Part shown: one piece after another, positions 2,903-17,799 of the stretch
Position numbering within the stretch: the stretch's first letter is position 1
Layout of the letters: each line of letters begins with the position of its first letter
Source: an uncultured virus (IMG/VR IMGVR_UViG_3300032038_000056)
Lineage: Duplodnaviria; Heunggongvirae; Uroviricota; Caudoviricetes
IMG/VR virus record: IMGVR_UViG_3300032038_000056
Length of the DNA stretch: 20,000 nucleotides
Strand: one strand, 5' to 3'
The notes under the pieces: generated by a model
Databases searched by the model: none
The model's input: only the letters and a program-made list of their open reading frames with translations
Told to the model about the DNA's origin: nothing
Translations under genes and position numbers: made by a program

Positions 2903-3235
2903 TCACAATCCGAATGGATGCGGTTTTGCATCCTTCCTTTTCTTTCTCTTATTCGTAGTGCCGTCCAGATTCAGATGATGTGCGCCAGAACCGTTGCCGC
3001 TCCAGTTGAACCACGAGAACCCGCCAGAGGCATTCTTACGGACGTATCCGCAAACTGTTCCGTCCGAAAATACACCAATCTCATGTTTCTTGCCGTCCGC
3101 TCCAAAACGCCCGTTCATTAGGATCTCTATAGCGGACGCTCTTACTCTTTCGAGTCCTGTTATATCCCCTGTAAGGAATCTCTCGGTCTGCCCGTCAAGA
3201 TCTCCGATGCGGTAAAGGTAGAGCGAATACATCAT
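2903..3235 (-). CDS. Paralog-family protein with C-terminal HPFGL tag
   Basis: LERVRASA, LNLDGT, ends KRKKRKDAKPHPFGL. Confidence 0.85.
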   Translation of the reverse strand: MMYSLYLYRIGDLDGQTERFLTGDITGLERVRASAIEILMNGRFGADGKKHEIGVFSDGTVCGYVRKNASGGFSWFNWSGNGSGAHHLNLDGTTNKRKKRKDAKPHPFGL

Positions 3236-3236
3236 A

Positions 3237-3554
3237 TCACATCCTCTTTCCAAATGTCCTATACAGGTTTTCAACGGATTCAGAGGTCAATGCCTCCGAA
3301 ATCCTGTCAGCGTATTGCACTGCTTTTTTGAGTGAATCGAGTTCAAGTGTATACTTCTTGTAGACACTGACCATACCTTTTATCGGAGACCACATGGATG
3401 CCACATACCCGCTGGCCTTCTTATTTATCCTCCAATAGTAGTTATAAGTCCCTATCTTCGGGATGTTTATCCCTATATCGTATCCCCATATAGAAGGTTC
3501 TTTGCTGATGATGTACGTTCTTCCGTAATTTCCGATGACGTATGATATGGCCAT
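3237..3554 (-). CDS. Hypothetical protein
   Basis: GAGGAGAGG RBS; DSLKKAVQYA motif near the C-terminus. Confidence 0.8.
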   Translation of the reverse strand: MAISYVIGNYGRTYIISKEPSIWGYDIGINIPKIGTYNYYWRINKKASGYVASMWSPIKGMVSVYKKYTLELDSLKKAVQYADRISEALTSESVENLYRTFGKRM

Positions 3555-3564
3555 ATCCCTCTCC

Positions 3565-3906
3565 TCACAGTCCGAACGGTGCTGGCTCGGTTTTCTTCTT
3601 CGTGTACGATTTGATGCGGTTCATAGCCTCCCTCTCGGTCAGAAGAACCTTTCTGGACAGACCAGTGAACTCGTACATATACGTCCTTCTCTCGCTGTCG
3701 TACCACTTGTACCCCCTGACGACAGCAACCGTTTCGTGTACCCCTCTGGAGGAAATCTTGTCGATGGTGGCGTAATAATACGCACCTTCCTCTACCGATC
3801 TGGAAGTCAGTCTTTTCAGCCACCAGAGTCCTTCTCTGATGACCTTGTTCTCAATCGCTGTACGCGATGCGGTTGTATATGAGTCCCCTGTCGTATACTC
3901 GGTCAT
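3565..3906 (-). CDS. Hypothetical protein with C-terminal APFGL tag
   Basis: Ends KKKTEPAPFGL. Confidence 0.85.
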   Translation of the reverse strand: MTEYTTGDSYTTASRTAIENKVIREGLWWLKRLTSRSVEEGAYYYATIDKISSRGVHETVAVVRGYKWYDSERRTYMYEFTGLSRKVLLTEREAMNRIKSYTKKKTEPAPFGL

Positions 3907-3907
3907 T

Positions 3908-4228
3908 TTACCACTTTTTCAGTTTGCCGTTCGTGAACAGTCCATGTCTACCGTTATGCACCCAGTACCATTCATGAGTTCCTTCGTATCTGAACTTGGG
4001 ATTCCTCCAATAGATGTTTTCTTCGACTACGCCAGCAATCTTGTTGCCAGATGGGTCGAGGTATATGTACGGTCCTGTGGATTTACCCTTGACCTTACCA
4101 GACTGTAGTGCGATGGATCTTGCTCTTGCCTTTTCGAGAGATGTATAAGGGCGGGCATAATGCTCGTAGAGGTTGCGGTCCCATCCCCTTCCCCCTCTTA
4201 ATTTATGTTCAATTACATAGTAGGTCAT
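3908..4228 (-). CDS. Hypothetical protein, array paralog family
   Basis: MTYYVIE start, SLEKARARS, FTNGKL. Confidence 0.85.
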   Translation of the reverse strand: MTYYVIEHKLRGGRGWDRNLYEHYARPYTSLEKARARSIALQSGKVKGKSTGPYIYLDPSGNKIAGVVEENIYWRNPKFRYEGTHEWYWVHNGRHGLFTNGKLKKW

Positions 4229-4232
4229 ATTA

Positions 4233-4622
4233 TCACAATCCGAACGGTGCTGGTTTGCTCTTGTTCTTCTTCCTCTTCTCCTGTCTCTCACGGGTCTCAT
4301 CGGAGTCATATGCCCATCCTTTGAGTGCCTTGACCATCTGTGCCTCGGTCATATCTTTCAGCGACGGGAATATAAGAGGTATCTCGGACAGGGGGATCAC
4401 AACAGCATCGCTGTCCTTTATGCGCGTGCCGTATTCCCTCTCGGCATCGAATACGACTGCGGTCTTGTTCCTCAGTGCGCCCAGATAGGTTCTGAACACC
4501 TGTGAGACCGCTAGACCCTTGCCCTTGACCTCCATTACGATGACGTGGGGTTTCTTCATCTGTGTGGAGGTAGGCACGTATGCATCTTCCAGATAGGATC
4601 CAGGGAACTTGTATTTGGCCAT
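4233..4622 (-). CDS. Hypothetical protein with C-terminal APFGL tag
   Basis: Ends KRKKNKSKPAPFGL; body lacks the family motifs. Confidence 0.85.
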   Translation of the reverse strand: MAKYKFPGSYLEDAYVPTSTQMKKPHVIVMEVKGKGLAVSQVFRTYLGALRNKTAVVFDAEREYGTRIKDSDAVVIPLSEIPLIFPSLKDMTEAQMVKALKGWAYDSDETRERQEKRKKNKSKPAPFGL

Positions 4623-4635
4623 TCAATCCCCCTTC

Positions 4636-4974
4636 TTACTGTCTCTTCTTTTTGAGGAACTGCTCTCTGTGTTCCTTGATTTGTTCCACAACCCAATCGG
4701 TATCCTTTTTGATGACCCCGTAGAGATCGCCAGTCGAATCCATACTATACAGTTTACCGTTGCTGTACCACACCAAATGTTCATCGTAGTGGTTGTTGCG
4801 ACCGATGGTGTAGTATTCCATCGTTGCACCGACATAACGGTTCTCGTTGTAGATCATAGCGATACGACCACCGCGAAGTCCGTCGCTGAAGAACATATCG
4901 TAACTCTTCCCTCTCGCACCGTTAAGGGTCTTGGCTGATGCCTTCTTTCCTTTGCAATAGATGTAGTAGGTCAT
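4636..4974 (-). CDS. Hypothetical protein, array paralog family
   Basis: MTYYIY start, TLNGARGKS, YSMDSTGDL. Confidence 0.85.
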   Translation of the reverse strand: MTYYIYCKGKKASAKTLNGARGKSYDMFFSDGLRGGRIAMIYNENRYVGATMEYYTIGRNNHYDEHLVWYSNGKLYSMDSTGDLYGVIKKDTDWVVEQIKEHREQFLKKKRQ

Positions 4975-4978
4975 ATTA

Positions 4979-5263
4979 TCATAATCCGAAAGGATGCCAC
5001 TCCTTGTTCTTGTTCTTCTTGAACTCGGACGTAAGCCCGTTCTCGTGCAGTCTGAGTTTCTTCCCGAAGACCGTCTCATAGTACGAACCGTTCTTTGAAT
5101 AGTGGCACGTACCGACCCATTTCTGTCCGTTGTAGATGTATGCCTCGTTGCCGTATCTACCGCCAGACAGGATGAAGTAAGCGTTCCTGCGTGCCTCGAT
5201 CAGCGTCATACCCGCTCTCTCACGGATCCCAGAGGCTTTCTCATATTCGACCCAATAGACCAT
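4979..5263 (-). CDS. Paralog-family protein with EWHPFGL tag
   Basis: MVYWVEY, TLIEARRNA, ends KKNKNKEWHPFGL. Confidence 0.85.
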   Translation of the reverse strand: MVYWVEYEKASGIRERAGMTLIEARRNAYFILSGGRYGNEAYIYNGQKWVGTCHYSKNGSYYETVFGKKLRLHENGLTSEFKKNKNKEWHPFGL

Positions 5264-5269
5264 TTTCAA

Positions 5270-5311
5270 TCACCTGTATAGTGTACCGTCTTTTAAGATA
5301 TAATATCTTTC
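5270..5311 (-). pseudogene. Remnant paralog C-terminus ERYYILKDGTLYR
   Basis: In frame immediately after the TGA of 5312..5581; matches the family C-terminal motif. Confidence 0.5.
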
Positions 5312-5581
5312 TCAAGTCTTCCTTATGACCCCTTCCGAGTTCACGAAATATGCACTGCGGGTCTTGGCATCCGACCAGATGAAATCTCCCCTGTCCTCGT
5401 CGAACGTAACGAACCCTATGGGGAATCTGGAGGTCTTGCTGAGGAAGATCCACGCGACCCTTCCGATACCGACTGTCTTGACCGCCTTTCCGCGTGCCAC
5501 GTTGATGCGTTCGGTGTGTACGTCCTTGCGCTTATCCAAGGGCTTTCCCTTGTAATCCGTGTACTCTATCCAGTATGACAT
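5312..5581 (-). CDS. Hypothetical protein, array paralog family
   Basis: MSYWIEY, INVARGKA, YFVNSEGVI; GAGGTG RBS. Confidence 0.85.
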   Translation of the reverse strand: MSYWIEYTDYKGKPLDKRKDVHTERINVARGKAVKTVGIGRVAWIFLSKTSRFPIGFVTFDEDRGDFIWSDAKTRSAYFVNSEGVIRKT

Positions 5582-5590
5582 TCGGACACC

Positions 5591-5875
5591 TCAATCGAGT
5601 TTCCTTCCCAGAGTTCCGTCTGGGTTCATGAGGTATGTTGTGCCTTTACTCCCCCCGTAGGAGATGTAGATGGGTGTCGCATATTTGTTGTATCTTTTAC
5701 CCATCACAACACCGAGTGCAGTCCATCCCTTATTGTGTTTTGCCTTCTCATTACGGGCGCATACATAGATTTCGTTGCATCTTTTTCTGTATGCATTCTC
5801 TCTGGCCTCGGTGATTGTATCATATTCTTCTTTGAACCACTTTTTATCAGAATTGTTCCATAACATATATCTCAT
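5591..5875 (-). CDS. Hypothetical protein, array paralog family
   Basis: TITEARENA, YLMNPDGTLGRK; GAGGTGA RBS. Confidence 0.85.
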   Translation of the reverse strand: MRYMLWNNSDKKWFKEEYDTITEARENAYRKRCNEIYVCARNEKAKHNKGWTALGVVMGKRYNKYATPIYISYGGSKGTTYLMNPDGTLGRKLD

Positions 5876-5885
5876 TACGCTCACC

Positions 5886-6260
5886 TCACGGGGTCAGATC
5901 CTTCCTCTTGACCTTCTCGCCCAATGCACCAGTGGATGGATTGACCTTGTAGCGATATGTCCTCTTATGCTCGATTTCGCAGTAGTACCCTTTCTTTTTA
6001 GTGTTGTTGTTATAATCCCACGATATCTTCTCTACGAGTATGCCTTCATATCCTCTGTGATACTCGTAGATGAAGCACTTGGCGTAGAACCACCTGCTGT
6101 TCTCCTTGATGAGTTTCACAGCGTCCACTCTGGCCTTTTCCAAGGACTGATACTCGCCCTTCTCCACGCCTTTCGAGGGGTATCTGCTACCGCCGAACAG
6201 AATGGGCTGGATGGTGTATTTGCGGAACTTTCCGATGAATCCGTCTTCTGGATAGTACAT
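5886..6260 (-). CDS. Hypothetical protein, array paralog family
   Basis: SLEKARVDA, YKVNPSTGALGEK. Confidence 0.85.
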   Translation of the reverse strand: MYYPEDGFIGKFRKYTIQPILFGGSRYPSKGVEKGEYQSLEKARVDAVKLIKENSRWFYAKCFIYEYHRGYEGILVEKISWDYNNNTKKKGYYCEIEHKRTYRYKVNPSTGALGEKVKRKDLTP

Positions 6261-6274
6261 TTCAATCCCTTACC

Positions 6275-6655
6275 TCACAATCCATACACATAATTTGAGG
6301 GATGCCAAGGTTCAACCTCTTCCTTAGAGACTTTACGACCGAGAGTGCCGTCAGAATTGAGGATGTACGCCTCCATACTGTTGTGCAGGAGTTTGCGCCA
6401 ATAGATCTTACCGTTACGGCAGAACACGACACCAATCGACATCATCTTCCTTTCAAGATAAGGATCAGATTTTCCATACGTGGAATATATCTTTATGCCG
6501 TTGCCCATCTTCTTACGTGTACTCATCATACGGTACGCCCATTTACGTACATCGGTAAGTGCGCTGTTCTTATCCCATATGGCCTCATTGAACTCATGGG
6601 AAAGGTTCGGTGCGTATCTGTTGCCGATGATTACATCTCCTGTGTATATTGCCAT
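6275..6655 (-). CDS. Paralog-family protein ending WHPSNYVYGL
   Basis: LTDVRKWA, YILNSDGTLGRK; variant tag. Confidence 0.85.
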   Translation of the reverse strand: MAIYTGDVIIGNRYAPNLSHEFNEAIWDKNSALTDVRKWAYRMMSTRKKMGNGIKIYSTYGKSDPYLERKMMSIGVVFCRNGKIYWRKLLHNSMEAYILNSDGTLGRKVSKEEVEPWHPSNYVYGL

Positions 6656-6665
6656 TTTTCTCACC

Positions 6666-6986
6666 TCACAGCCCGAACGGGTGTGCTGTTCCTTTCTTCT
6701 TTACGATAGGTCTGCCCGTGTCGGGATTGACCGCTTTTCCAGAGTCACGAACGAACCTTCCACCCGTATAGGATACTGTGTCAAAATACTCATAGTATTC
6801 CAACGCGCCACCATTGTAAAGACGCAGGATCATAACATAATAAGGGGATAGGGGTCTGTCAATACCTTTCCCACGGATCCACCAGCACGCATACTTGATG
6901 GCATTATAGGGAGAGTCCACGGACATAACCTCTGACTCCTCTTTGTTCGTCATAGCGTTTCTCAAAATAAATCTGTATTCTACCAT
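6666..6986 (-). CDS. Hypothetical protein with HPFGL tag
   Basis: Ends KKKGTAHPFGL. Confidence 0.85.
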   Translation of the reverse strand: MVEYRFILRNAMTNKEESEVMSVDSPYNAIKYACWWIRGKGIDRPLSPYYVMILRLYNGGALEYYEYFDTVSYTGGRFVRDSGKAVNPDTGRPIVKKKGTAHPFGL

Positions 6987-7294
6987 TATATCCACTTCCA
7001 CTCCCTGTTATAATCAAGCAGTTTGCCATTGACAGGGGATACCCTGTATGTCCTGTTCCTGGCCCACTGATGAATGTGATAGCCGTTCAGCAGTTCCCCT
7101 GTGATGATCCTGTAGTTATGATAGTACGTGATGTCCTCGATGGGATGGCTGAACATCTTTGACGGATCATATATCGCAACCCTCTTGCCAGGGTTCTTCT
7201 TTGCGATGGCACACGCCTTGACGCGGGTATCCTCAAGTCTCTTGGATCCGAGTACCCTGTCTCCCTTTCCGAATATCTCTATCAAGTAAGTCAT
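6986..7294 (-). CDS. Hypothetical protein, array paralog family
   Basis: MTYLIE, LEDTRVKA, YRVSPVNGKL. Confidence 0.85.
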   Translation of the reverse strand: MTYLIEIFGKGDRVLGSKRLEDTRVKACAIAKKNPGKRVAIYDPSKMFSHPIEDITYYHNYRIITGELLNGYHIHQWARNRTYRVSPVNGKLLDYNREWKWI

Positions 7295-7620
7295 ATCTTT
7301 CCCTTCCTGATTGAACCATTCCTGTATAGTGTGTAATATTTCCCACTCCAGTAAGGCACATAGGCTACCCAGAAATCATTACCAGAACCCAATGTCCCGA
7401 CAGATCCGCAGACATATTCTTCCCCATCCCTTTCCACAGAGCATACCGCAACGATAGTAGAGGATGATCTGGCTAGATGGTGCTTCGGACTCAATGCAAT
7501 CTTGCTGTATGCGTAGGCACGGGCTTCCGTAAGGCTGTTGAACTGCCTATTGACTACCTTTTTGCGCGGGATGTCCTTATTGTCGTTCTTATACCAATAC
7601 AATACGTATCCGTCTATCAT
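7291..7620 (-). CDS. Hypothetical protein, array paralog family
   Basis: SLTEARAYA, YTLYRNGSI; start 4 nt after the upstream PFGL stop. Confidence 0.85.
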   Translation of the reverse strand: MIDGYVLYWYKNDNKDIPRKKVVNRQFNSLTEARAYAYSKIALSPKHHLARSSSTIVAVCSVERDGEEYVCGSVGTLGSGNDFWVAYVPYWSGKYYTLYRNGSIRKGKI

Positions 7621-7624
7621 AGTA

Positions 7625-7903
7625 TCACAGTCCGAACGGCAGATTAGACTTCTTCTTTTTCTTATACAGATTCCTGTACTCCGAGCCAATAGGCATAGCG
7701 AGACGGGTATTCGTGTAGATGACGGTCCACTGATACGGTTTTCTGTCACGCACATACTCTTGGAGTTCGATAGGGTACTCCGCACTCGCCTTGCACCTCT
7801 GGTCGTAATACCTTAGTGCTTCCGTGTATGAGAGGAACTCTCTGGATGTCATTCTGTCCCCAAATCTTATGACCTTGTAGAAATGATCCGATGTGTATTC
7901 CAT
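7625..7903 (-). CDS. Hypothetical protein with LPFGL tag
   Basis: Ends KKKKKSNLPFGL; GAGGTGA RBS. Confidence 0.85.
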   Translation of the reverse strand: MEYTSDHFYKVIRFGDRMTSREFLSYTEALRYYDQRCKASAEYPIELQEYVRDRKPYQWTVIYTNTRLAMPIGSEYRNLYKKKKKSNLPFGL

Positions 7904-7912
7904 TGTTTCACC

Positions 7913-8215
7913 TCACAGTCCGAACGGATGCCATTCTTTCTTTTTCGTCTTCTTAGCGAACGTCCCGTCTGCATTTATGCGTCTCTCTCTTCCGTCAGTG
8001 GTCTCGTATGTATATTCTATGATACCATAATGGTTATACTTGCTGACAATTCCTATAAGAAGTCCAGATTCGTTGTTTCTGACCCACATCTCTCCGTTGC
8101 ACCCTCCTGCGTTGATGATTATCTTCCTTGCCATCGTTTCAGTGGTTGCATTGGCATAAGACTCACGGTTTTTGTCATAAACGACAGAATATTTGTAGAA
8201 CAGATGTCCGCTCAT
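7913..8215 (-). CDS. Paralog-family protein with EWHPFGL tag
   Basis: ETMARK, INADGTF, ends KKTKKKEWHPFGL. Confidence 0.85.
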   Translation of the reverse strand: MSGHLFYKYSVVYDKNRESYANATTETMARKIIINAGGCNGEMWVRNNESGLLIGIVSKYNHYGIIEYTYETTDGRERRINADGTFAKKTKKKEWHPFGL

Positions 8216-8216
8216 T

Positions 8217-8522
8217 TCAATCCCTCACAGAGCCGTCCCCGTTCAGAATGTGTTTCCTGTTATCGTGGTAGTAATCGTACCAGATGAACTGTCCGTTCTC
8301 CCTCTTCACGACACCAGCGACAGGATTCATAATCCTCCCGCCGAATATTGCAACGACCTTGACGGAGTAATGTTCATCGAGGTATCTGTATGCGCCAGCA
8401 CGTGCATTCTTTATTCCCGTGAACCTCTTTGAATCCCCAGAACTGTTCTTGACCCTGTGGTACTGTCCGTTGATAGGGCATTTGTATTCAAGGCTGTACG
8501 TTTTGTATGATGCGTTTGCCAT
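8217..8522 (-). CDS. Hypothetical protein, array paralog family (probably leaderless)
   Basis: GIKNARAGA, ILNGDGSV; no RBS, ATG ~20 nt after TATA. Confidence 0.85.
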   Translation of the reverse strand: MANASYKTYSLEYKCPINGQYHRVKNSSGDSKRFTGIKNARAGAYRYLDEHYSVKVVAIFGGRIMNPVAGVVKRENGQFIWYDYYHDNRKHILNGDGSVRD

Positions 8523-8541
8523 ACATCTGAAACGTTGTAGG

Positions 8542-8563
8542 TATATTTAAAAGTGTATTACGT
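8542..8563 (-). promoter_or_regulatory. TATA promoter with upstream ACGTAATAC motif
   Basis: TTTTAAATATA at 8542-8552; GTATTACGT (+ strand) at 8555-8563. Confidence 0.65.
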
Positions 8564-8581
8564 AAAAAGAGGAAAAGGTTT
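8564..8581 (-). terminator. Pyrimidine/oligo-T terminator
   Basis: AAACCTTTTCCTCTTTTT, similar to 11889-11907 and 12268-12284. Confidence 0.55.
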
Positions 8582-8597
8582 CAGCGGTGCTTGAACT

Positions 8598-8834
8598 TCA
8601 GTAGATCCTCTCACCGAGAGTTCCGTCCTTGTTCAGTCTCCACATACAGCCGTCAGTGGATTTCCAATATCTCTTTTTCATTCTGTAATACACCGCACCG
8701 ACATAGAGTTTGGTGTGTGCGCCATACTTAGAGACATCTACCGCATAGATGTTCTTGTTCACTCTGGATGCAGCGTATGCCCTTGCCTCGTCCAGCGTAT
8801 CAAACTCTTTTGCTCCGACAACATATATTGCCAT
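8598..8834 (-). CDS. Hypothetical protein, array paralog family
   Basis: TLDEARAYA, RLNKDGTLGER; GAGGTGA RBS. Confidence 0.85.
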   Translation of the reverse strand: MAIYVVGAKEFDTLDEARAYAASRVNKNIYAVDVSKYGAHTKLYVGAVYYRMKKRYWKSTDGCMWRLNKDGTLGERIY

Positions 8835-8861
8835 ATTTCTCACCTCTTTCAAATTATCTCA

Positions 8862-9224: not shown

Positions 9225-9242
9225 CTGATCACATCCCGAACT

Positions 9243-9500: not shown

Positions 9501-9505
9501 GGGTC

Positions 9506-9982
9506 TCACAGTCCGAAAGGATGCCACTCCTTTTTGCCAGTATTCGCCTTTGCACCCGCGAGAGGAACGCTGTACGTCCTTCCAGTTCTCGGATCCGTCC
9601 ACGCCTTGAGTCCGTATGCTCTCATCCAAGGAAGGATGCACTCTTCGGGCATACGGCTGTTGAACTTGCGGAGAATGGCACGGTACACCGTCTTCACGTC
9701 CTCCGTCTTGGGTCTGATGTCCCATCCCCTGTCGTAGTTCACGACAATACCATTCTGGTAGATCTGGAGTTTGGAGATGCACCCTTTGTTAATCCCGAAG
9801 GCGGACTTCTCAAGGAACGTCTTGGTCTCGAAGGGGTATCTGATGCCTTTGTAGAACACGTTACCCGTGATCCACGCATCTACGAACTTCTCAATCTTGA
9901 TCACGGGCTTGTCCGCTGATGCGGAGGTCATAGGGCGCACGACCATCACGTGTTCGTCAATGAACTTGTTGCCTGTACTCAT
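9506..9982 (-). CDS. YDRGWD-motif protein (DUF7678-like by recall) with EWHPFGL tag
   Basis: S.FGIN.G.ISKL.I...VVNYDRGWD motif recalled from small phage/ICE proteins. Confidence 0.7.
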   Translation of the reverse strand: MSTGNKFIDEHVMVVRPMTSASADKPVIKIEKFVDAWITGNVFYKGIRYPFETKTFLEKSAFGINKGCISKLQIYQNGIVVNYDRGWDIRPKTEDVKTVYRAILRKFNSRMPEECILPWMRAYGLKAWTDPRTGRTYSVPLAGAKANTGKKEWHPFGL

Positions 9983-10598: not shown

Positions 10599-10844
10599 TC
10601 ACAGTCCGAAAGGATGCGGTTCACTCTTCTTGGCGGGCTTATGCCATCTGGGGTTAGGCGATGCCGCAAACCTCATATGGTATTCATCCAGCGACATCCC
10701 GTTCACCCAGAAGTCCCCTCTGTAATGAGTAGGCTCTATATATCCCGCCTTGATCATATCGTCATAGGAATCGAACACCTCACGGATTGTCACATGAAGG
10801 AATCTAGGGGTCATTACCGTTGCTCCGACTTTAGGTAGTGCCAT
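10599..10844 (-). CDS. Hypothetical protein with HPFGL tag
   Basis: Start MALPKVG after GAGGTGA; TPRF..V.I and GY.EPTHY motifs; unrelated to the main family. Confidence 0.85.
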   Translation of the reverse strand: MALPKVGATVMTPRFLHVTIREVFDSYDDMIKAGYIEPTHYRGDFWVNGMSLDEYHMRFAASPNPRWHKPAKKSEPHPFGL

Positions 10845-10854: not shown

Positions 10855-11025
10855 TCACAGTCCGAACGGGGATGCTTTCTTCTTTGCGGGGGACTTGACC
10901 TTTTTAAACTCAATAGTAACAGAGCCATAAATCCTAAGTAACTGACAGGTCTTATCACCGCAATCCTCGGCTGAGAAAGTTCCTTGCTGTTCTACTCCGT
11001 TTATAATTACCTTGAACATAGCCAT
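10855..11025 (-). CDS. 56-aa protein with SPFGL tag (not in ORF track)
   Basis: Hand translation MAMFKVIINGVEQQG...KVKSPAKKKASPFGL; GAGGTGA RBS. Confidence 0.8.
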   Translation of the reverse strand: MAMFKVIINGVEQQGTFSAEDCGDKTCQLLRIYGSVTIEFKKVKSPAKKKASPFGL

Positions 11026-11035: not shown

Positions 11036-11428
11036 TCACAGTCCGCGAACCCTGTTCATCATCTGAATATATGCTGTAAGGGTCATCCCCAGAGTACCGT
11101 CCGCCTTGACGATCCTCTGCTCTCTTACGTTGTATCCATGTCCGCTCTTATCTTCGGGAGACCATAGCAGAAGGTTGTAGTCCTTGTCGAACCTGATGTA
11201 TGCGAGGGATTTCTTGATACCCCACTGCATCTTGCCGAGATAGTTCTTGACCATTCCATATTCATAGGCATATCCAACGGGATCCGAACTCCTCCACTTG
11301 TACTTGTTCCTCACTTTCGCATACAGCATCTTGCGAACCTCCGTGATGGAATCGCCGTAGCAAGTCTCGATGTCGCTCTGTATACCTGCGCTGTACTTCG
11401 GTTTGTCCGAAAACTTCTTTGTAGCCAT
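11036..11428 (-). CDS. Paralog-family protein ending VRGL
   Basis: ITEVRKML, IVKADGTLG. Confidence 0.85.
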   Translation of the reverse strand: MATKKFSDKPKYSAGIQSDIETCYGDSITEVRKMLYAKVRNKYKWRSSDPVGYAYEYGMVKNYLGKMQWGIKKSLAYIRFDKDYNLLLWSPEDKSGHGYNVREQRIVKADGTLGMTLTAYIQMMNRVRGL

Positions 11429-11433
11429 TTTTA

Positions 11434-11745: not shown

Positions 11746-11755
11746 TTCTCATACC

Positions 11756-11839: not shown

Positions 11840-11861
11840 ACTGATAGAATGGAAAAGACAG

Positions 11862-11888
11862 TATTTAATGGTTATGAAAATGTAATAC
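11862..11888 (-). promoter_or_regulatory. TATA promoter with GTATTAC motif
   Basis: ATTAAATA at 11862-11869; GTAATAC (+ strand) at 11882-11888. Confidence 0.55.
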
Positions 11889-11907
11889 AAAAAGAGGTAA
11901 GGAGTTT
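11889..11907 (-). terminator. Pyrimidine/oligo-T terminator
   Basis: AAACTCCTTACCTCTTTTT after the stop at 11919. Confidence 0.55.
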
Positions 11908-11918
11908 GGAAAAGATAT

Positions 11919-12206
11919 TCAGTAGAATGACAGCGAACCGTCTGCGAGTATGATACCCCTGTCCTCTGACGACCCCGAATCTGGGATGTCGATACTGAAG
12001 TTGCTCACATCGAACCATATAGGGTATTTGTTGAAACCGTACCAGATGGCTGAACCGAACGGGATGGGAGAATCGTTGCTCTTGAAGACATAGACCTCGG
12101 TCTCTTTGTGCTTCCTAGTCCACTCGTAGATGCCCTTACGGGCGGATTTCAAATCCTCGTAGCATTTCCTTTCTTTCTTCCATTCGTACATCACATATAC
12201 AGACAT
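11919..12206 (-). CDS. Hypothetical protein, array paralog family
   Basis: DLKSARKGI, ILADGSL; GGAGGT RBS; apparently monocistronic. Confidence 0.85.
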   Translation of the reverse strand: MSVYVMYEWKKERKCYEDLKSARKGIYEWTRKHKETEVYVFKSNDSPIPFGSAIWYGFNKYPIWFDVSNFSIDIPDSGSSEDRGIILADGSLSFY

Positions 12207-12221
12207 AGATTATTACCTCCG

Positions 12222-12257
12222 ATGTATGTATTCAGAATACATACATTTGTATATATT
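12222..12257 (-). promoter_or_regulatory. TATA promoter with a perfect 12-bp inverted repeat (putative operator)
   Basis: ATGTATGTATTC-A-GAATACATACAT at 12222-12246; AATATATA at 12250-12257. Confidence 0.65.
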
Positions 12258-12267
12258 ACTATCGAAG

Positions 12268-12284
12268 AAAAAAGGAAGAGGTTT
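12268..12284 (-). terminator. Pyrimidine/oligo-T terminator
   Basis: AAACCTCTTCCTTTTTT after the stop at 12289. Confidence 0.55.
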
Positions 12285-12288
12285 GGGA

Positions 12289-12546
12289 TCAGTTGAGACG
12301 GTCCATGACCGCACCAGTGACCCAGTTGAGGGAATAGGCTTTATCACCGCGAAGGAAGTAATACTCATACCTTCCCACATCGAACCCGACGATCCCGTAG
12401 ACAGGCACTTTGCCAGGCGTACCCTGATAGATTCTTACCTCTTTCTGACCGTCTTCGCTGATATGTTTCATCGCTTCCCATCTGGCCTTGCCCAGTGAAT
12501 TGACAAAGACCTTCTTCCTTCCCAATACAGCACGATATCTTACCAT
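12289..12546 (-). CDS. Hypothetical protein, array paralog family
   Basis: MVRY start, SLGKARWEA, YSLNWVTG. Confidence 0.85.
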   Translation of the reverse strand: MVRYRAVLGRKKVFVNSLGKARWEAMKHISEDGQKEVRIYQGTPGKVPVYGIVGFDVGRYEYYFLRGDKAYSLNWVTGAVMDRLN

Positions 12547-12555
12547 TTTCTCACC

Positions 12556-12912
12556 TCAATTATGTCCATAATTCTCTCTGACTGTCAAAGGGGTCTTACC
12601 ATCCCACGGATAGAGGTCCATCCAACCGTCTAACCACAGTTCTTTTCTTCCGTGATATATTCTGAAATACCCCTTTTCATGACCGACTTTCACCGTAGGG
12701 AGATAGAACCAATCATCATACGCATACGGTTTGCCTTTGGATCCGACCAGTTTGTACCCGTATACATCCACCTCAACATCCTCGCGTACAGAACCCGTCC
12801 AATCCAGATATTCCTTGCCAGATCTTTTGGTTATCTTTGCAAACCGATATTTGGGACGGAAATTAAGACATTGTGTGAGGTATCCCCACCAAGTTCCGAC
12901 GAGTCTGGCCAT
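12556..12912 (-). CDS. Hypothetical protein
   Basis: Tiles the array; GTGAT RBS-like site. Confidence 0.8.
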   Translation of the reverse strand: MARLVGTWWGYLTQCLNFRPKYRFAKITKRSGKEYLDWTGSVREDVEVDVYGYKLVGSKGKPYAYDDWFYLPTVKVGHEKGYFRIYHGRKELWLDGWMDLYPWDGKTPLTVRENYGHN

Positions 12913-12916
12913 TATA

Positions 12917-13207
12917 TCACGCAAATCTTAGAGCCTTGGCTTTCCACGACGGGGTTGCGTACTTCTCCCAGTTCTTGACCCACGTGGAAATTCTGACCCA
13001 TCCGCGACCAGTGTGCTGTGCGACGACGAGCCAGTTACCGCCCTTGGAATTGTACTTGAACAATTCAAAGTTGGTGTCATCGAACCCCCATCCAGTGAGT
13101 TTATCACGACATACCTTGGCGATTTCATTCATATCCATGGACTTGACGTTCAGCATCTTTACTGCAAATTCGTCACCGAGTTTACATACAGCGATTATCT
13201 GTGTCAT
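12917..13207 (-). CDS. Hypothetical protein
   Basis: Tiles the array; AGGTGTGAGG upstream. Confidence 0.8.
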   Translation of the reverse strand: MTQIIAVCKLGDEFAVKMLNVKSMDMNEIAKVCRDKLTGWGFDDTNFELFKYNSKGGNWLVVAQHTGRGWVRISTWVKNWEKYATPSWKAKALRFA

Positions 13208-13209
13208 CC

Positions 13210-13479
13210 TCACACCTTCCTCTTAGGCATAAGACCGATGTTCTGTAGAACAGATTTGCTCGCATACACGATGACTCCGCCTGATCTGAAACACCATCCA
13301 AGAACACGCCCTCCGTCACCAAAAAGTGTGGATTCCTTATAATCATCACGGTAGTTGTTCTGTGCGTGAGTTTTGAGTTGCTTTATAGCGGATTCATAGG
13401 TACTCGCTTTGAACTCCCACACACCCTTCGAGGGCATTCTTCCTTTCACAATTCCGAAACATCCGTAAAATGTTGCCAT
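13210..13479 (-). CDS. Hypothetical protein
   Basis: AGGTGA RBS; STYESAIKQ. Confidence 0.8.
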   Translation of the reverse strand: MATFYGCFGIVKGRMPSKGVWEFKASTYESAIKQLKTHAQNNYRDDYKESTLFGDGGRVLGWCFRSGGVIVYASKSVLQNIGLMPKRKV

Positions 13480-13488
13480 TTTCTCACC

Positions 13489-13842
13489 TTACCTGTACTC
13501 TTTTCTTAATGTCATAAGTGTCTTGAGGAGGTATACTGCCTCAGTATCCTTCTGACCGTTTCTGGACATATTCTCGATGTCCTCTTTCAAAGATGCGACC
13601 GTATACTCATAATTGGTCTTGTCCGTAACGATGGTGTAAAAACCCGCATAGGTGTCCTCATTGATACCCTCTACGTTCCCGTGAAATGCGTTATAGGTGT
13701 ATCTGTACATCCTGCACGCCCAGTTGAATACAGCGGGATCCTTGCAGAACCTCTGTATCTTGGGGGAATTGCTGTACGACAGAGCCTTACGGGGTCTCTG
13801 CATCCTCGACCTTACCGTTTCCAATTTGATAGCCATCGTCAT
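13489..13842 (-). CDS. Hypothetical protein
   Basis: GGGGAGTGA RBS; abuts the upstream stop. Confidence 0.8.
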   Translation of the reverse strand: MTMAIKLETVRSRMQRPRKALSYSNSPKIQRFCKDPAVFNWACRMYRYTYNAFHGNVEGINEDTYAGFYTIVTDKTNYEYTVASLKEDIENMSRNGQKDTEAVYLLKTLMTLRKEYR

Positions 13843-14097
13843 TCACTCCCCGTATCTCTTTCCGTTCTTACTGATAGAACCATCCTTGTTGATCCTTCTC
13901 TCGGACTTGTAATCCCCGTAGGTGTAGACACCATCCCATTCACGGACAAGCCCCATGAGCGTCTTGTAGTTCCAGATAAAGACCACTGTCGTATCGAAAC
14001 CGTCATTGACCTTCTTTATCGCCTTTCTGCGTGCGTCATCGAGGTTATCCGCCTCATCGAGCAGTCTGTCCATTCCCGATCTGATTTGATATCTCAT
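13843..14097 (-). CDS. Hypothetical protein, array paralog family
   Basis: NLDDARRKA, INKDGSI. Confidence 0.85.
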   Translation of the reverse strand: MRYQIRSGMDRLLDEADNLDDARRKAIKKVNDGFDTTVVFIWNYKTLMGLVREWDGVYTYGDYKSERRINKDGSISKNGKRYGE

Positions 14098-14106
14098 CTT
14101 TTCACC

Positions 14107-14349
14107 TCAATATGTTTTTCCGTTCCTGTAAAGTTTGTAGAATCTTTTACTCTTCTTAGAGAACCACACATATCCGTCATGTCTGGAGATCACGCCGTCC
14201 ATGACCGTCGAATTTTTGGATGGGAACATATATGCAACAGGGATTCCGTGATTCTCGTCCATCACATCCATAGCGTACTGACGTGTTTTGACTATGGAAT
14301 CGTAACCTCTCTCCCTATACCCTTTTCCGAAATCAATCCAGTACACCAT
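14107..14349 (-). CDS. Hypothetical protein, array paralog family
   Basis: MVYWIDFGKG, IVKTRQYA, LYRNGK. Confidence 0.85.
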   Translation of the reverse strand: MVYWIDFGKGYRERGYDSIVKTRQYAMDVMDENHGIPVAYMFPSKNSTVMDGVISRHDGYVWFSKKSKRFYKLYRNGKTY

Positions 14350-14354
14350 CTGCA

Positions 14355-14690
14355 TCACCTCTCTTTAGCAATCGTACCATCCATATTCAGTGCATATTTC
14401 GGATGACGCTCGTTATTGATGACCCAGTAAAATGTACCCTTATAGCGTACAACGGATCCGTACATATTATACTTTGATTTACCGACGGAGATGCCTTTTA
14501 TGGATTTTCCAAAGATAGCAGCATTGGGACGGAACGCTCTGGTGACATATGCAGACATCCCCTCGGATCTCCCCGCGATATACAGTTTGATTGCGAACTC
14601 CCTTGCTTTATCCAGCGTAGAGAATGTAAAATCCTCATATTCTTCACCGTACCCGCCTCTGCCTTTGGAAACAGTAACGTAGAACGTCAT
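14355..14690 (-). CDS. Hypothetical protein, array paralog family
   Basis: TLDKAREFA, YALNMDGTI. Confidence 0.85.
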   Translation of the reverse strand: MTFYVTVSKGRGGYGEEYEDFTFSTLDKAREFAIKLYIAGRSEGMSAYVTRAFRPNAAIFGKSIKGISVGKSKYNMYGSVVRYKGTFYWVINNERHPKYALNMDGTIAKER

Positions 14691-14703
14691 ACCTCTGGCC
14701 TCC

Positions 14704-15000
14704 TCAATATTCCTTCATCTTTACGATACGTCCGTCCGAGAGTGCGTAATAGGGGAAACGCTGAACACCGCTCTTGTCGATGGGCATCCACATCCACCTT
14801 CCGACATATCCCCCCGCAAAGTAGATTTTCCCGATGGGTCTCGACTTACTGCTGGTGTATAGAGTTGCTGCCGACCTGTAATCCGTCTTATATGCGTTCT
14901 TACAGACATCCAGAACGATCCTTCTGGCTTTTACCGCACTATCCGTCATAAGATTCTCGCGGATCCCTTTCTGAAACGAATACTCCACCCAGTATGCCAT
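14704..15000 (-). CDS. Hypothetical protein, array paralog family
   Basis: MAYWVEY, AVKARRIV, YALSDGRI. Confidence 0.85.
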   Translation of the reverse strand: MAYWVEYSFQKGIRENLMTDSAVKARRIVLDVCKNAYKTDYRSAATLYTSSKSRPIGKIYFAGGYVGRWMWMPIDKSGVQRFPYYALSDGRIVKMKEY

Positions 15001-15004
15001 GGTA

Positions 15005-15310
15005 TCACAGTCCGAACGGAGATGCCCTCTTCTCAACAGGTCTTCTGAGTCCGAGATACCTCTCCACCTCTCTCTTTGCGTCATCGAGATAATGGAAGGT
15101 ACGAATATATGTAGGCTTTTTTACAATCATATATGTAAGATGATGGCCGTCTAATCTCTTTTTCATTACAGTTATCGTATAATCAGAAGACCCTATCTTT
15201 TCAACTCTTCCAAAGATTTTATCGGACCCCTCGATATACAGATCGTACCTGACGAAACCTCTGACACCTGCTACTCTTTCAGTTTTGACCCATTTGAATG
15301 CTCTTGCCAT
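15005..15310 (-). CDS. Hypothetical protein with SPFGL tag
   Basis: FHYLDDAKRE; ends EKRASPFGL. Confidence 0.85.
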   Translation of the reverse strand: MARAFKWVKTERVAGVRGFVRYDLYIEGSDKIFGRVEKIGSSDYTITVMKKRLDGHHLTYMIVKKPTYIRTFHYLDDAKREVERYLGLRRPVEKRASPFGL

Positions 15311-15321
15311 CCTTCTTCACC

Positions 15322-15681
15322 TCAGAACATCGAATCGTTTGCCGACCATCCCTTGCTGTATCTCTCACCAGTGATGATGTTCGCCAGATAACGCTTGCGG
15401 GTCTTTGCATCAATCATCTTTCCGCACGTATGATCGCCGTAATGCACTACACCATAACAGTATGCAACGATACTTTTCGTATTGGATGCGGGGTTGTATG
15501 AATAAAGAGTGATACGGGGGTCGCCCTCGTACTGCACATTGATCTTGGAAACGAATGCTTCTCCGACCGTCAGTGCTGTTGCCATCGCCTTGTTGGTAGA
15601 GGTATATGAGACCTCGTGGCTCTTTCCGTTGATGATACACCATTTCGTATATTTGGTAGGCTTTTTTGTAACCGCTTTCAT
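15322..15681 (-). CDS. Hypothetical protein
   Basis: AGGTGA RBS; tiles the array. Confidence 0.8.
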   Translation of the reverse strand: MKAVTKKPTKYTKWCIINGKSHEVSYTSTNKAMATALTVGEAFVSKINVQYEGDPRITLYSYNPASNTKSIVAYCYGVVHYGDHTCGKMIDAKTRKRYLANIITGERYSKGWSANDSMF

Positions 15682-15690
15682 TTTCTCACC

Positions 15691-16035
15691 TTAAATTGTA
15701 TATTTGAGGGCGTGTATGCCCAGTTTCTTGAGCGTCACTCCGCAGTCCTCGGTGAACGCATCGAATCCTCCATCTACCTTAGCACAACTGATAAACTCGA
15801 TACCTGTTTTCGCCCATCCTGTCGGTTTCACCCATGCATCAAGGTACTCGATCTTCTTCTTGCGATATGTCTGAATGATGTTTCCTTTCCAATCGAAGAG
15901 GACCCCAGAGAGTGATTTTTCGGTCCTATCAGTTACCTTAAAGAAGTAGGCGAGTTCAGGTTTTCCATATATCCTTCCGACCTTGAACCTTGCCGTATCC
16001 GTAGTCTTGATACTCAAACGTGAACGCTCAACCAT
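15691..16035 (-). CDS. Hypothetical protein
   Basis: GAGGTGA RBS; FKVG.IY...FKVTDRTEKS motif. Confidence 0.8.
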   Translation of the reverse strand: MVERSRLSIKTTDTARFKVGRIYGKPELAYFFKVTDRTEKSLSGVLFDWKGNIIQTYRKKKIEYLDAWVKPTGWAKTGIEFISCAKVDGGFDAFTEDCGVTLKKLGIHALKYTI

Positions 16036-16044
16036 ACTCTCACC

Positions 16045-16437
16045 TCACAGTCCGAACGGGGATGCTTTCTTCTTAACGGATCCCTTACGCAGAGTTCCGT
16101 CAGAGTTGATTGTGATTTCAGACCTTGACTTGGTGGTAGAATACCCAGTCCATACGAACTTGACACCCCCAGAAGTGGTGCTCTTGACTCCGACGAATCC
16201 GCACCTTGAAACGATGCCGTTCTTTATGGTATTGATATTCACACCGTATACTGCATAAGGCAGTTCGTCTCCGTATTTGCGGTAGTTGTCAAATCTCTTT
16301 TCAGTCAGTCTGTACTGGGTCTTGAGGAACAGCATCGCGTGTTTGCGTGCATCGACAAGATTGCTGAATACCTTGAGCCTGCCACCCATATTCTTGGGTC
16401 CGCCCGATCCGTAGAAATCCATAAAGAACTGTGCCAT
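16045..16437 (-). CDS. Paralog-family protein with SPFGL tag
   Basis: NLVDARKHA, INSDGTL, ends KKKASPFGL. Confidence 0.85.
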   Translation of the reverse strand: MAQFFMDFYGSGGPKNMGGRLKVFSNLVDARKHAMLFLKTQYRLTEKRFDNYRKYGDELPYAVYGVNINTIKNGIVSRCGFVGVKSTTSGGVKFVWTGYSTTKSRSEITINSDGTLRKGSVKKKASPFGL

Positions 16438-16457
16438 TCTTTCACTTCCTTTAATTT

Positions 16458-16487
16458 GTATTACGTATCTGCGTTATACTATATAAT
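16458..16487 (-). promoter_or_regulatory. TATA promoter with downstream ACGTAATAC motif
   Basis: ATTATATA at 16480-16487; GTATTACGT (+ strand) at 16458-16466. Confidence 0.6.
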
Positions 16488-16500
16488 GACTCCTCTCTCC

Positions 16501-16833
16501 TCAATATGCCGACTGTATCAGATGCCAGTCGCGAATGTCGGAGATGTGCTTTCCGAGAGTTCCGTCCTTACGGAGAACATACCAGAAACTCCTCTCTCTG
16601 CCATCGATCATAACCCTCTTTTCAAGGATGAATTTGCCCTCTTTTGTGAAATACACACCCTCAGTACAGGGGGAACGGACAAATGCGACGATTGCCTCAT
16701 GTGTCCTTATCAGACTCATGCACTTCTTACGCGCATCGGACTTGAACTTGAAGGTCGTGAACTTCCCGTCTTTACCACGCATGAATACGTAGTGGTACGG
16801 ATGTACTGTTGTCTTATACTCTATGCAATACAT
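16501..16833 (-). CDS. Hypothetical protein, array paralog family
   Basis: KSDARKKC, YVLRKDGTLGK. Confidence 0.85.
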   Translation of the reverse strand: MYCIEYKTTVHPYHYVFMRGKDGKFTTFKFKSDARKKCMSLIRTHEAIVAFVRSPCTEGVYFTKEGKFILEKRVMIDGRERSFWYVLRKDGTLGKHISDIRDWHLIQSAY

Positions 16834-16838
16834 CTTTT

Positions 16839-17186
16839 TCACCAGAACGTGTAACCTATCTTCTTATAATGATTACGTGCTTCCATGAAATTATTATACC
16901 CGACAGTACCATAACTGAGAGTGGAAAGGCTGCCATAATAGGTATCTATATCCCAATACTTTTCTGGGGTCTCCCACACACAATGGAAATAATATTTTCC
17001 CAAAAACTCTGTACGATAGGGTGTCAGTATTCCGATAGGTTCTTTTGTATTCTTACCAGAATAGAAATACACGGGTCTCAGTCTCTTGAAAGAGGGGAGT
17101 TGTTTGATGAAATCCGATCTGATGTTCTTCACAGTATCATTGATCGCCATCCTCTCTCCTTTTCCAATCTGCACATACGTAACCAT
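16839..17186 (-). CDS. Hypothetical protein
   Basis: GAGGTGA RBS; weak family resemblance. Confidence 0.8.
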   Translation of the reverse strand: MVTYVQIGKGERMAINDTVKNIRSDFIKQLPSFKRLRPVYFYSGKNTKEPIGILTPYRTEFLGKYYFHCVWETPEKYWDIDTYYGSLSTLSYGTVGYNNFMEARNHYKKIGYTFW

Positions 17187-17191
17187 TTTTC

Positions 17192-17500
17192 TCACCTCAG
17201 TCTCTTTCCGAGTGTTCCGTTCTTATACAGTTGGTACTTACCATCGGCTGCATAGTGTCCATCCTTGGAGGGATACCAGTATCTTGTTCCCTGATACCAC
17301 TTGTGTACCTCTCCCTTGAGAACATACGGACCAGCGATGTTCTTTCCGACCTCATAGACCGAGACCATCTTGTTGTTGTAATTTCCCACGACCTCGTAGG
17401 CGGACTTGCGTGCATTGGTAAGGGTATTGTGACTGCTCACAGTCCTTCCGACGTTCTTCCTGTAATAGTCCTCGACTACGACCTTGTATTTTCCTTCCAT
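17192..17500 (-). CDS. Hypothetical protein, array paralog family
   Basis: TLTNARKSA, YQLYKNGTLGK. Confidence 0.85.
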   Translation of the reverse strand: MEGKYKVVVEDYYRKNVGRTVSSHNTLTNARKSAYEVVGNYNNKMVSVYEVGKNIAGPYVLKGEVHKWYQGTRYWYPSKDGHYAADGKYQLYKNGTLGKRLR

Positions 17501-17511
17501 ATCAAAACACC

Positions 17512-17799
17512 TCACAGTCCAAAGGTATAGGTCAGCAGTTTCTTGACCGTACCATTCACGTTGAGTTCCTGAATGGAATCATAAGTGACCCACCAGAACC
17601 TGTCCATCTTACAGGAAACCTTACCGACATAAGAGTTCTTGTTCTGTGATGCATAAATCTTACAGACCTTCGGACGAAAATCCGCATAGATCGTCTTCTG
17701 TTTGAAATCCATAAAGGAAATCGCCATACTACGGGTTTTTGAAAGAGAGTCCACGCCTTTCTCAAGTTTTCCGTTTCCGAAATCGAGCCAATATACCAT
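17512..17799 (-). CDS. Paralog-family protein ending TFGL
   Basis: MVYWLDFGNG, SLSKTRSMA, LNVNGTV. Confidence 0.85.
   Translation of the reverse strand: MVYWLDFGNGKLEKGVDSLSKTRSMAISFMDFKQKTIYADFRPKVCKIYASQNKNSYVGKVSCKMDRFWWVTYDSIQELNVNGTVKKLLTYTFGL

Follow-up and report, generated by a model that had tools for sequence, protein, structure and literature searches.

A shared C-terminal Pro-Phe-Gly-Leu tail on small proteins of a probably viral ruminant-gut element: a candidate docking motif whose codons lie at cassette joints

Introduction

Portable terminal tags are known from several systems. Here we describe a lysine-rich C-terminal tail ending in Pro-Phe-Gly-Leu (PFGL) that is shared by small proteins encoded in a 20,000 nt stretch of DNA (the window) from an uncultured-virus record approximately 74.5 kb long, IMG/VR IMGVR_UViG_3300032038_000056. 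All statements about gene content refer to the window.

Peroxisomal targeting signals of type 1 (PTS1) and the ligands of class II PDZ domains lie in the last three or four residues of a protein, include its free carboxylate, often follow basic residues, and are read by one receptor domain. The internal proteins of bacteriophage T4 are highly diverse and, according to a review of the T4 head, share only a capsid-targeting sequence (CTS), which foreign proteins fused to it also follow (PMC3012670). In encapsulins a short C-terminal cargo-loading peptide brings unrelated, and also heterologous, cargo into an HK97-type shell (PMC11866011 and PMC8229669). Signals read by ClpXP at the C-terminus include RRKKAI of MuA and LPF of Streptococcus mutans SsbA, which is read only in certain strains (PMC5143411). 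Clients of the DNA sliding clamp carry the motif Q-aliphatic-x-L-F or Q-aliphatic-x-L-x-L, of which positions 1, 4 and 5 matter most (bioRxiv 10.64898/2026.05.27.728225). At the level of DNA, the T4-type PeSLs are non-coding units of a promoter and a stem-loop that border small non-essential ORFan genes and mediate their modular shuffling between close relatives (PMC2839356 and PMC4122927).

Results

Thirteen genes of the window end in a PFGL tail

Fifty-seven genes were called in the window, with start codons chosen by eye, and 13 of them (about a quarter) end in PFGL followed by a stop codon. Each of the 13 PFGL-TGA stops listed in an earlier note, made by a model from the sequence alone, was found to close an open reading frame (ORF) on the minus strand. 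Five related metagenome contigs (L001 to L005) had been found with the motif, approximately one PFGL site per contig serving for the finding, and contigs from the sequencing runs X1, X3 and X8 were also compared with the window. The tagged genes are as follows.

16045..16437, minus strand: 130 aa, paralogue family, ends KKKASPFGL-TGA; the L005 orthologue has an identical tail
15005..15310, minus strand: 101 aa, ORFan, ends EKRASPFGL-TGA; directly after its stop come TACC and the next gene's ATG
10855..11025, minus strand: 56 aa, ORFan, ends AKKKASPFGL-TGA
10599..10844, minus strand: 81 aa, ORFan, ends KKSEPHPFGL-TGA; orthologues P0008, P0010, P0014 and P0026
10295..10588, minus strand: 97 aa, paralogue family, ends EKEWHPFGL-TGA; tail replaced in the X1 and X3 contigs
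9506..9982, minus strand: 158 aa, DUF7678 domain at residues 37-108, ends GKKEWHPFGL-TGA
7913..8215, minus strand: 100 aa, paralogue family, ends KKKEWHPFGL-TGA; the tagged member modelled with AlphaFold2
7625..7903, minus strand: 92 aa, ORFan, ends KKKKKSNLPFGL-TGA; orthologue P0009 ends KKKKKEAHPFGL
6666..6986, minus strand: 106 aa, ORFan, ends KKKGTAHPFGL-TGA with Gly codon GGG; body swapped in the X1 and X8 contigs
4979..5263, minus strand: 94 aa, paralogue family, ends KNKNKEWHPFGL-TGA with Leu codon TTA
4233..4622, minus strand: 129 aa, ORFan, ends KKNKSKPAPFGL-TGA with Leu codon TTG; tail kept in five orthologues, P0019 and P0021-P0024
3565..3906, minus strand: 113 aa, ORFan, ends KKKTEPAPFGL-TGA
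2903..3235, minus strand: 110 aa, paralogue family, ends KRKKRKDAKPHPFGL-TGA with codons CCA and TTG

Within the 57 proteins the peptide occurs nowhere but at the end: PFGL is terminal in 13 of 13 occurrences and FGL in 14 of 14. By our own arithmetic, the amino-acid composition of the window would give approximately 0.0003 PFGL ends, against the 13 seen. The DNA 12-mer TTCGGACTGTGA, with up to two mismatches allowed, has 17 matches in the window, all on the minus (coding) strand, where chance would give 1.8, and none of 200 shuffles reached 17. The PFGL tail is thus shared far beyond chance. Four of the genes, with stops at 4979, 7913, 9506 and 10295, end in the longer EWHPFGL, again as had been noted.

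A logo built from 39 distinct 16-residue tails, which were collected by their PFGL end, reads KKK-E-[W/P/A]-[H/S/A]-P-F-G-L, and the 12 residues that precede PFGL hold on average 4.4 lysines or arginines. Over the last 20 residues the mean net charge is +3.5 in tagged proteins, compared with +1.95 in the 41 untagged proteins of the gene array.

Near matches to the tail fared unevenly. The earlier note had counted four further ends, TFGL, VYGL, VRGL and TMGL, with the tag; the TFGL and VYGL ends are probably variants, because both recur in relatives (P0050 and P0055), whereas the VRGL end lies in a shifted register and the TMGL end is probably a coincidence. The variant and degenerate copies are listed below.

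17512..17799, minus strand: probable variant tail, ends KKLLTYTFGL-TGA; orthologue P0050 keeps TYTFGL, and the gene is missing from L001
6275..6655, minus strand: probable variant tail, ends EPWHPSNYVYGL-TGA; kept in orthologue P0055, while P0144 ends RPYGL
11036..11428, minus strand: VRGL-TGA gene in which the motif DNA (CGCGGACTGTGA) is shifted by one base, without a lysine run
9229..9240, minus strand: non-coding motif relic (TTCGGGATGTGA) past the stop of gene 9243-9500

The TMGL end (stop at 1516) was rejected as a tag, since it falls within a terminator-like hairpin. This hairpin lies at 1509-1528, across the stop of gene 1516-1920, with a T run after it; a transcription unit may end there. 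We also considered that frameshifting or read-through of the stop might fuse neighbouring proteins, and rejected this because the next start is found in all three frames relative to the stop.

Conservation of the tail as a peptide

Across the window and L001-L005, all 25 PFGL-stop sites close coding-strand ORFs of at least 62 codons. The earlier note had named, as a refutation of its reading, motif DNA that falls in random frames or outside ORFs in relatives; this check came out in the note's favour, as 12 of 12 further PFGL-stop sites in the related contigs close real ORFs. Only two motif copies are out of frame or non-coding (those at 11036 and 9229-9240), and both are degenerate, with two mismatches each.

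Within the PFGL codons the variable bases are the third of Pro, the third of Gly and the first and third of Leu, a pattern that is partly circular because the sites were selected on PFGL. The codon variants noted earlier (CCA/CCG/CCT, GGA/GGG and CTG/TTG/TTA) are all present and their differences are synonymous. Independently of that selection, relatives differ from the window in the tail of gene 2903..3235 at positions 2908 and 2915, in both cases synonymously. Outside the last four residues the sequence is freer: orthologues of the 81-aa protein keep PFGL and the lysine run but have EPH, EWH or IPS directly before PFGL, and the 92-aa protein and its orthologue keep both with SNL or EAH in that place. 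Five DUF7678 homologues comprise three with a tail (PFGL, GFGL and PFEL, on differing lysine-rich linkers) and two without.

Two further forms of the tail bear on the same point. In the X1 and X3 contigs, positions 9995-10337 are swapped for 40 bases that encode another in-frame tail, AAPFGL before the TGA at 9994, as read in the frame of gene 10295-10588 and translated by hand. One L002 tail ends in TAA and its ribosome site lies farther downstream, indicating that the overlap of TGA with a ribosome site is not required. No conserved RNA structure was found over the 13 tails (consensus fold -0.59 kcal/mol, two pairs, no covariation). Taken together, the synonymous changes, the changed residues before a kept PFGL, the TAA form and the alternative in-frame tail argue that selection keeps the tail as a peptide, as the earlier note had proposed.

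The tail is carried by unrelated bodies

An iterative profile search among the proteins analysed placed 29 of the 57 window proteins in one highly divergent basic family, with the signature Y..L..AR..A...G.V...G..W...Y.L..DG. Five of the 13 tagged proteins belong to this family, one has the DUF7678 domain and seven show no detectable relation; in L002 a DUF4313 protein carries the tail as well. On these assignments the bodies that bear the tail are of four or more unrelated kinds (the basic family, DUF7678, DUF4313 and several ORFans), which agrees with the earlier observation that it marks both paralogue-family members and unrelated proteins. Orthologues exist both with and without the tail. 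One such pair is formed by 4636-4974 of the window, which ends KKKRQ-TAA, and L002:141-485, which ends KEKHKFGL-TGA.

The fold of the family domain was modelled with AlphaFold2 from one untagged member.

5591..5875, minus strand: untagged basic-family member, used for the fold model

The model has a predicted local distance difference test (pLDDT) score of 91 and a predicted template modelling (pTM) score of 0.83, and comprises two strands, one helix and five strands. Foldseek gave no clear match in the PDB (best E-value 0.65) or in BFVD (best E-value 0.24). In the VIA wide comparison the best Z was 5.5, with AcrIF9 at Z 5.2, which is the noise level. The nearest ESM Atlas clusters score 0.83 and serve as a lead only. 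In public data the family profile retrieved 419 representatives at an E-value of 0.001 or below. Among the best 150 of these 419, 10 of the 114 small relatives (up to 140 aa) have [FY]GL ends, and the scarcity of such ends suggests that the tail is an optional addition particular to this element group. Large proteins matched by the family profile were set aside as DUF5122 propeller repeats, a spurious hairpin match.

For the tagged member 7913..8215, AlphaFold2 gave a confident body, and a mean pLDDT of 57 without secondary structure over the last 10 residues. The tail is therefore predicted to be flexible, exposed and not docked on the body.

The array is basic throughout. Of its 41 untagged proteins (57-18349), 40 have an isoelectric point (pI) of at least 9.0 (9.0-10.0); for relatives of the family found elsewhere the median pI is 9.7. 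The sole acidic one is encoded at 11919-12206 and has a pI of 5.8. That the basicity of the array reflects nucleic-acid binding is a guess.

The tail codons lie at cassette joints

Compared with the window the relatives are mosaic: individual genes have been inserted, deleted or replaced, and the joints fall at gene junctions. Homology with L001 sets in precisely at the PFGL codons (15020); the gene upstream differs and the one downstream is the same. L005 lacks genes 16839-17186 and 15691-16035. A 10.8-kb X1 contig is collinear with 2500-12000 apart from replaced cassettes, whose joints lie at 4623/4986, 6673/6983, 9994/10338 and 11045/11804; position 11045 falls within the shifted motif of 11036..11428. 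The body of gene 6666..6986 is replaced in both the X1 and X8 contigs, with a joint that falls within the tail or at its edge (6673 or 6666), and gene 4979..5263 has joints at 4979 (X8) and 4986 (X1). The X8 contig joins 9228 to 9506, skipping gene 9243-9500, which from this comparison is a one-gene cassette between an intact motif (9506-9517) and the relic (9229-9240).

By our reading of the joints, one boundary lies no more than about 10 bases from a tail motif in approximately 7 of the 11 replaced or deleted cassettes seen in relatives. We estimate the chance level for joints that touch a tail at roughly 44%, so that 7 of 11 is not significant and no enrichment is seen. Cassettes are exchanged at junctions generally, and the tail is one kind of junction. 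Because its coding DNA sits at recombination joints, the tail moves with the cassettes, and the contig comparisons show it gained, lost and exchanged along with single-gene cassettes.

Positions 11804-11907 match L001 3441-3544 at 95% identity. It has the look of a 5' fragment left over from a tagged gene that L001 carries complete (approximately 3509-3886, ending KKKSGPFGL, identical to P0025); most of that L001 gene is absent from the window.

Distribution of the tail

A 20-base form of the motif DNA has no match in IMG/VR viral contigs and none in GTDB species genomes. A degenerate scan for WHPFGL-stop over 2.9 million IMG/VR viral contigs returned 13 matches, none in a real ORF, which we judged to be due to chance: in 10 of them the in-frame stretch before the match is shorter than 25 codons, a lysine run precedes none of them, and roughly half end in FGF. 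A tail profile picked out 21 proteins among 7,998 scored candidates; they include one protein of the window itself, and every one is a small ORFan (81-137 aa) that lacks Pfam domains.

Searches for related loci were similarly unproductive. A tblastn search of a family member against phages gave no match; searches with the 186-aa protein, P0024 or a family member gave no usable related locus; and a degenerate LNKDGTLGK scan gave two loci, both without family members. Relatives of the DUF4313 protein occur in six fecal 'Bacteriophage sp.' records, and the PFGL end is absent from the two of these that were read (L021 and L022). On these searches, the motif is confined to this element group, and same-family relatives elsewhere lack the tail. 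In full-text literature searches none of the papers listed, judged on titles and the beginnings of abstracts, described a C-terminal PFGL tag; the earlier note had likewise not recognised the motif.

Setting of the tagged genes

All recognisable genes of the window lie on the minus strand. Searches of the 57 proteins against Pfam, PHROGs and NCBIfam named nothing beyond the DUF7678 protein and the following two.

19243-19968, minus strand: PnuC transporter
18591-19196, minus strand: small resolvase-like protein

The Pfam match of the resolvase-like protein begins at profile position 30 of 145, and a weak YneB-like match was also seen; its catalytic N-terminus may be degenerate. Downstream of these genes approximately 55 closely packed small genes, encoding 56-186 aa, reach to position 57. 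The first gene of the array, 18384-18551, encodes 55 aa with an acidic end and appears AbrB/SpoVT-like by eye, without a supporting family match.

Genes are usually joined by TGAGGTGAnnnnATG, where one gene's stop codon overlaps the ribosome-binding site of the gene that follows; the ribosome sites of the array are of the strong GAGGTGA type. Stop codons of the 57 genes are 47 TGA, 10 TAA and no TAG. At 6 of the 13 tagged junctions the next start lies 4-5 bases past the stop and has no ribosome site of its own. Promoter-like sites number 29 against 34.6 expected, and both these and terminator-like sites are at the level of shuffled sequence. The window contains no Rfam family and no tRNA.

Parts of the window were found in sequencing runs whose labels read bovine, sheep or gut metagenome (11 studies, 20 rows), the best of which contain 0.40 of the window's words, and there is no RNA dataset among them. 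Megablast of the window found no match in GenBank phages or plasmids. Of the records in which relatives of the DUF7678 protein occur, 36 are from phages, mostly those of Firmicutes, and 2 from plasmids. Combined with the PHROG matches and the GAGGTGA ribosome sites, this points to a phage of a Firmicutes-type host as the most likely carrier. The ruminant-gut element is probably viral.

Discussion

A candidate docking motif

The reading we favour, with moderate confidence, treats the tail as a short linear motif for docking that is portable between proteins and recognised by a single conserved receptor, which the element itself probably encodes. Its lysine-rich linker, flexible and approximately 8-12 residues long, would be followed by the invariant PFGL, with the free carboxyl end forming part of the signal. 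Four invariant terminal residues on dozens of bodies (more than 40) would imply one conserved pocket, and with it one receptor, while the lysines might steer the tail to an acidic surface or to nearby nucleic acid. We think of the receptor as encoded by the element, and not as a universal host hub, because the motif is confined to the element group and family relatives elsewhere do not have it.

That the receptor is a component of the capsid, scaffold or portal is a tentative guess by analogy. With a receptor of that type, the tag would bring small basic proteins, in a changing assortment, into the particle for delivery with the DNA. Virion loading is our first guess because the T4 internal proteins' capsid-targeting sequence is analogous. 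A broader proposal, which we consider rather unlikely, is that the element has an addressing system of its own, in which a dedicated element-encoded receptor reads the free PFGL end and loads or exports a fast-changing arsenal of small basic proteins, which would reach the next cell along with the DNA, and the tag codons double as a recombination joint. A cassette recombining at the tag codons would then gain or lose the address in one step, and delivery would be coupled to gene shuffling.

Several observations weigh against docking by a dedicated receptor. Tagged bodies are less basic than untagged ones (mean net charge +2.5 versus +7.4; Mann-Whitney p = 0.0004), and the lysine run lifts the tagged proteins above pI 9, with one exception at 8.1; the run may simply restore charge instead of steering docking. 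The tail DNA is also more uniform than the peptide needs, with TTC in 25 of 25 tails versus 77% in bodies, GGA in 23 of 25 versus 37%, and CTG in 21 of 25 versus 37%. A force at the DNA or RNA level therefore also acts on the tail codons besides selection on the peptide, and recombination at the cassette joints is the probable cause of the uniformity. The earlier note, which was borne out as to a portable, selected peptide, had overlooked both this excess uniformity and the position of the tail at cassette joints. Tagged and untagged genes are moreover interleaved in one seemingly translationally coupled, co-expressed unit, which would be unexpected if the tagged proteins alone were late and packaged. 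Finally, as regards the viral nature of the element, it has no DNA match in GenBank phages or IMG/VR, and the window contains no structural gene.

Weighing the alternatives

The main rival, which we judge unlikely, is that the tail is a C-terminal degron for timed removal by a host AAA+ protease (for example ClpXP, possibly via an adaptor) or by a protease of the element. A degron would add a second layer of control inside one operon, and the interleaving of tagged and untagged genes fits this, as does a tail that is predicted to be exposed. The basic stretch with a hydrophobic free end resembles the MuA signal RRKKAI in general pattern; the tail sequence itself matches neither RRKKAI nor LPF. 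The LPF signal is strict, strain-limited and found in a Firmicute (PMC5143411), so that the narrow distribution of the tail does not exclude a host reader. What argues against removal by protease is that same-family relatives in other elements lack the tail, that WHPFGL occurs in no real viral-contig ORF, and that the invariant Pro-Phe-Gly has no counterpart among the ClpX C-terminal signals named in that paper. We consider it quite unlikely that the tail is generic, its lysines adding charge and its aromatic or hydrophobic tip acting as a wedge or membrane anchor without any specific receptor. The basic character of the array and of the family relatives, together with the significantly less basic tagged bodies, is what such a tail would predict, and there is a weak negative correlation between the charge of the body and that of the linker (Spearman -0.28, p = 0.04, n = 52, with orthologues that are not independent). 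Charge and hydrophobicity alone, however, need no four invariant residues at the exact end, and no other aliphatic residue replaces Phe or Leu in the 39 tails, a set collected by its PFGL end; in variants, Phe can be replaced by Tyr and Gly by Glu.

We estimate as improbable that the tail docks on a universal hub of the host or on an export machine, either the DNA sliding clamp or, if the element is conjugative, a type IV coupling protein. Type IV secretion signals are C-terminal and positively charged, and DUF4313 is common on conjugative elements of gut Clostridia, both of which count in its favour. A DNA-binding-like basic body with a flexible linker and a hydrophobic C-terminal peptide is the usual build of a clamp client, and the QLVLGL motif of E. 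coli Pol IV is likewise a C-terminal x-G-L (bioRxiv 10.64898/2026.05.27.728225). Against the clamp stand the lack of Gln and the His, Ser or Ala at position 2 of the tail; a universal reader should moreover have drawn the motif into many elements, and it is confined to one group. Conjugative export is opposed by the lack of any transfer gene in view and by the 36 phage against 2 plasmid records of DUF7678 relatives.

Least probable, and very improbable in our view, is a junction element in which DNA or RNA is conserved as a recombination joint or translational-coupling device and the peptide is incidental. It would account for the over-uniform GGA and TTC codons, for the cassette events that border a tail, including gene 9243-9500 between its two motif copies, for the copies at 11036 and 9229 that are not translated as PFGL, and for the six tagged junctions whose next start lacks a ribosome site. 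The intact motif, however, always stands in the same frame at an ORF end and varies synonymously; the lysine run is kept as composition and not as sequence; the alternative tails are in frame, a TAA form exists, and no RNA structure is conserved. Cassette joints are, in addition, equally frequent at untagged ribosome-site/start junctions.

Few other handles exist on what phage 'dark matter' does: a shared terminal tag of this kind sorts dozens of ORFans into one pathway before their single functions are understood, and a 10-residue peptide is a ready hook for pull-downs and reporter fusions. Should loading or export prove true, the tail would be a compact natural delivery tag for Firmicute phages or elements and would mark small proteins that act at entry, likely an anti-defence set; a degron would instead be a new Gram-positive degradation signal. 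A protein signal linked to the DNA joints of cassette exchange also bears on the evolution of hyperplastic regions.

Comparison with known systems

Sliding-clamp motifs resemble the tail in being penta- or hexapeptides, often C-terminal behind a flexible linker, by which many unrelated clients reach one hub (bioRxiv 10.64898/2026.05.27.728225). They differ in their defining Gln and aliphatic second residue, both of which are absent from the tail. The six commonest residues six places from the end of the 39 tails are W (14), P (11), A (7), M, N and S, and Gln is not one of them; position 2 of the clamp motif is H (23), S (6), A (5), L (3), G or R, where an aliphatic residue would be needed. Agreement with the motif is seen at hexapeptide positions 4 and 6, which are always F and L in these tails, collected as they were by their PFGL end. 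Lacking both the Gln and the aliphatic second residue, the tail was excluded from the clamp motifs as a family.

The T4 CTS, like the tail, is a short conserved terminal peptide on diverse small, basic, fast-changing proteins of a variable locus. It is N-terminal whereas the tail is C-terminal, and the two have no sequence likeness. The CTS is cut off by the prohead protease. With the encapsulin peptide the tail shares a C-terminal position behind a linker predicted to be flexible (the last 10 residues discussed above), whereas encapsulins as a rule take one cargo type per shell and have another consensus. The encapsulin cargo peptide consensus is rich in Gly, Ser and Leu. None of the 57 window proteins matched a capsid family in Pfam, PHROGs or NCBIfam, and an HK97-fold shell gene was not seen beside the tagged genes.

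ClpXP signals are likewise very short, end in a free C-terminus and depend on every position, and that of MuA has a basic run before its hydrophobic end; they cause degradation, and none of those known contains Pro-Phe-Gly-Leu. A positive cluster of the type IV kind is present at the C-terminus of the tagged proteins, as the charge of +3.5 over the last 20 residues indicates, and no relaxase, coupling-protein or type IV gene was found among the 57 window proteins or the scanned proteins of L001-L005. Class II PDZ ligands end in hydrophobic-x-hydrophobic, a pattern that Phe-Gly-Leu fits, and PTS1 and PDZ recognition is mostly eukaryotic or extracytoplasmic; no such receptor was seen in the window. 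The PeSLs, finally, resemble the tail as repeated sequences at the borders of exchanged small ORFan cassettes, which here are stop/ribosome-site/start junctions and include some tail codons. Unlike a PeSL, the tail repeat is coding and in frame, has no conserved stem-loop, and is not accompanied by an enrichment of promoter-like sites.

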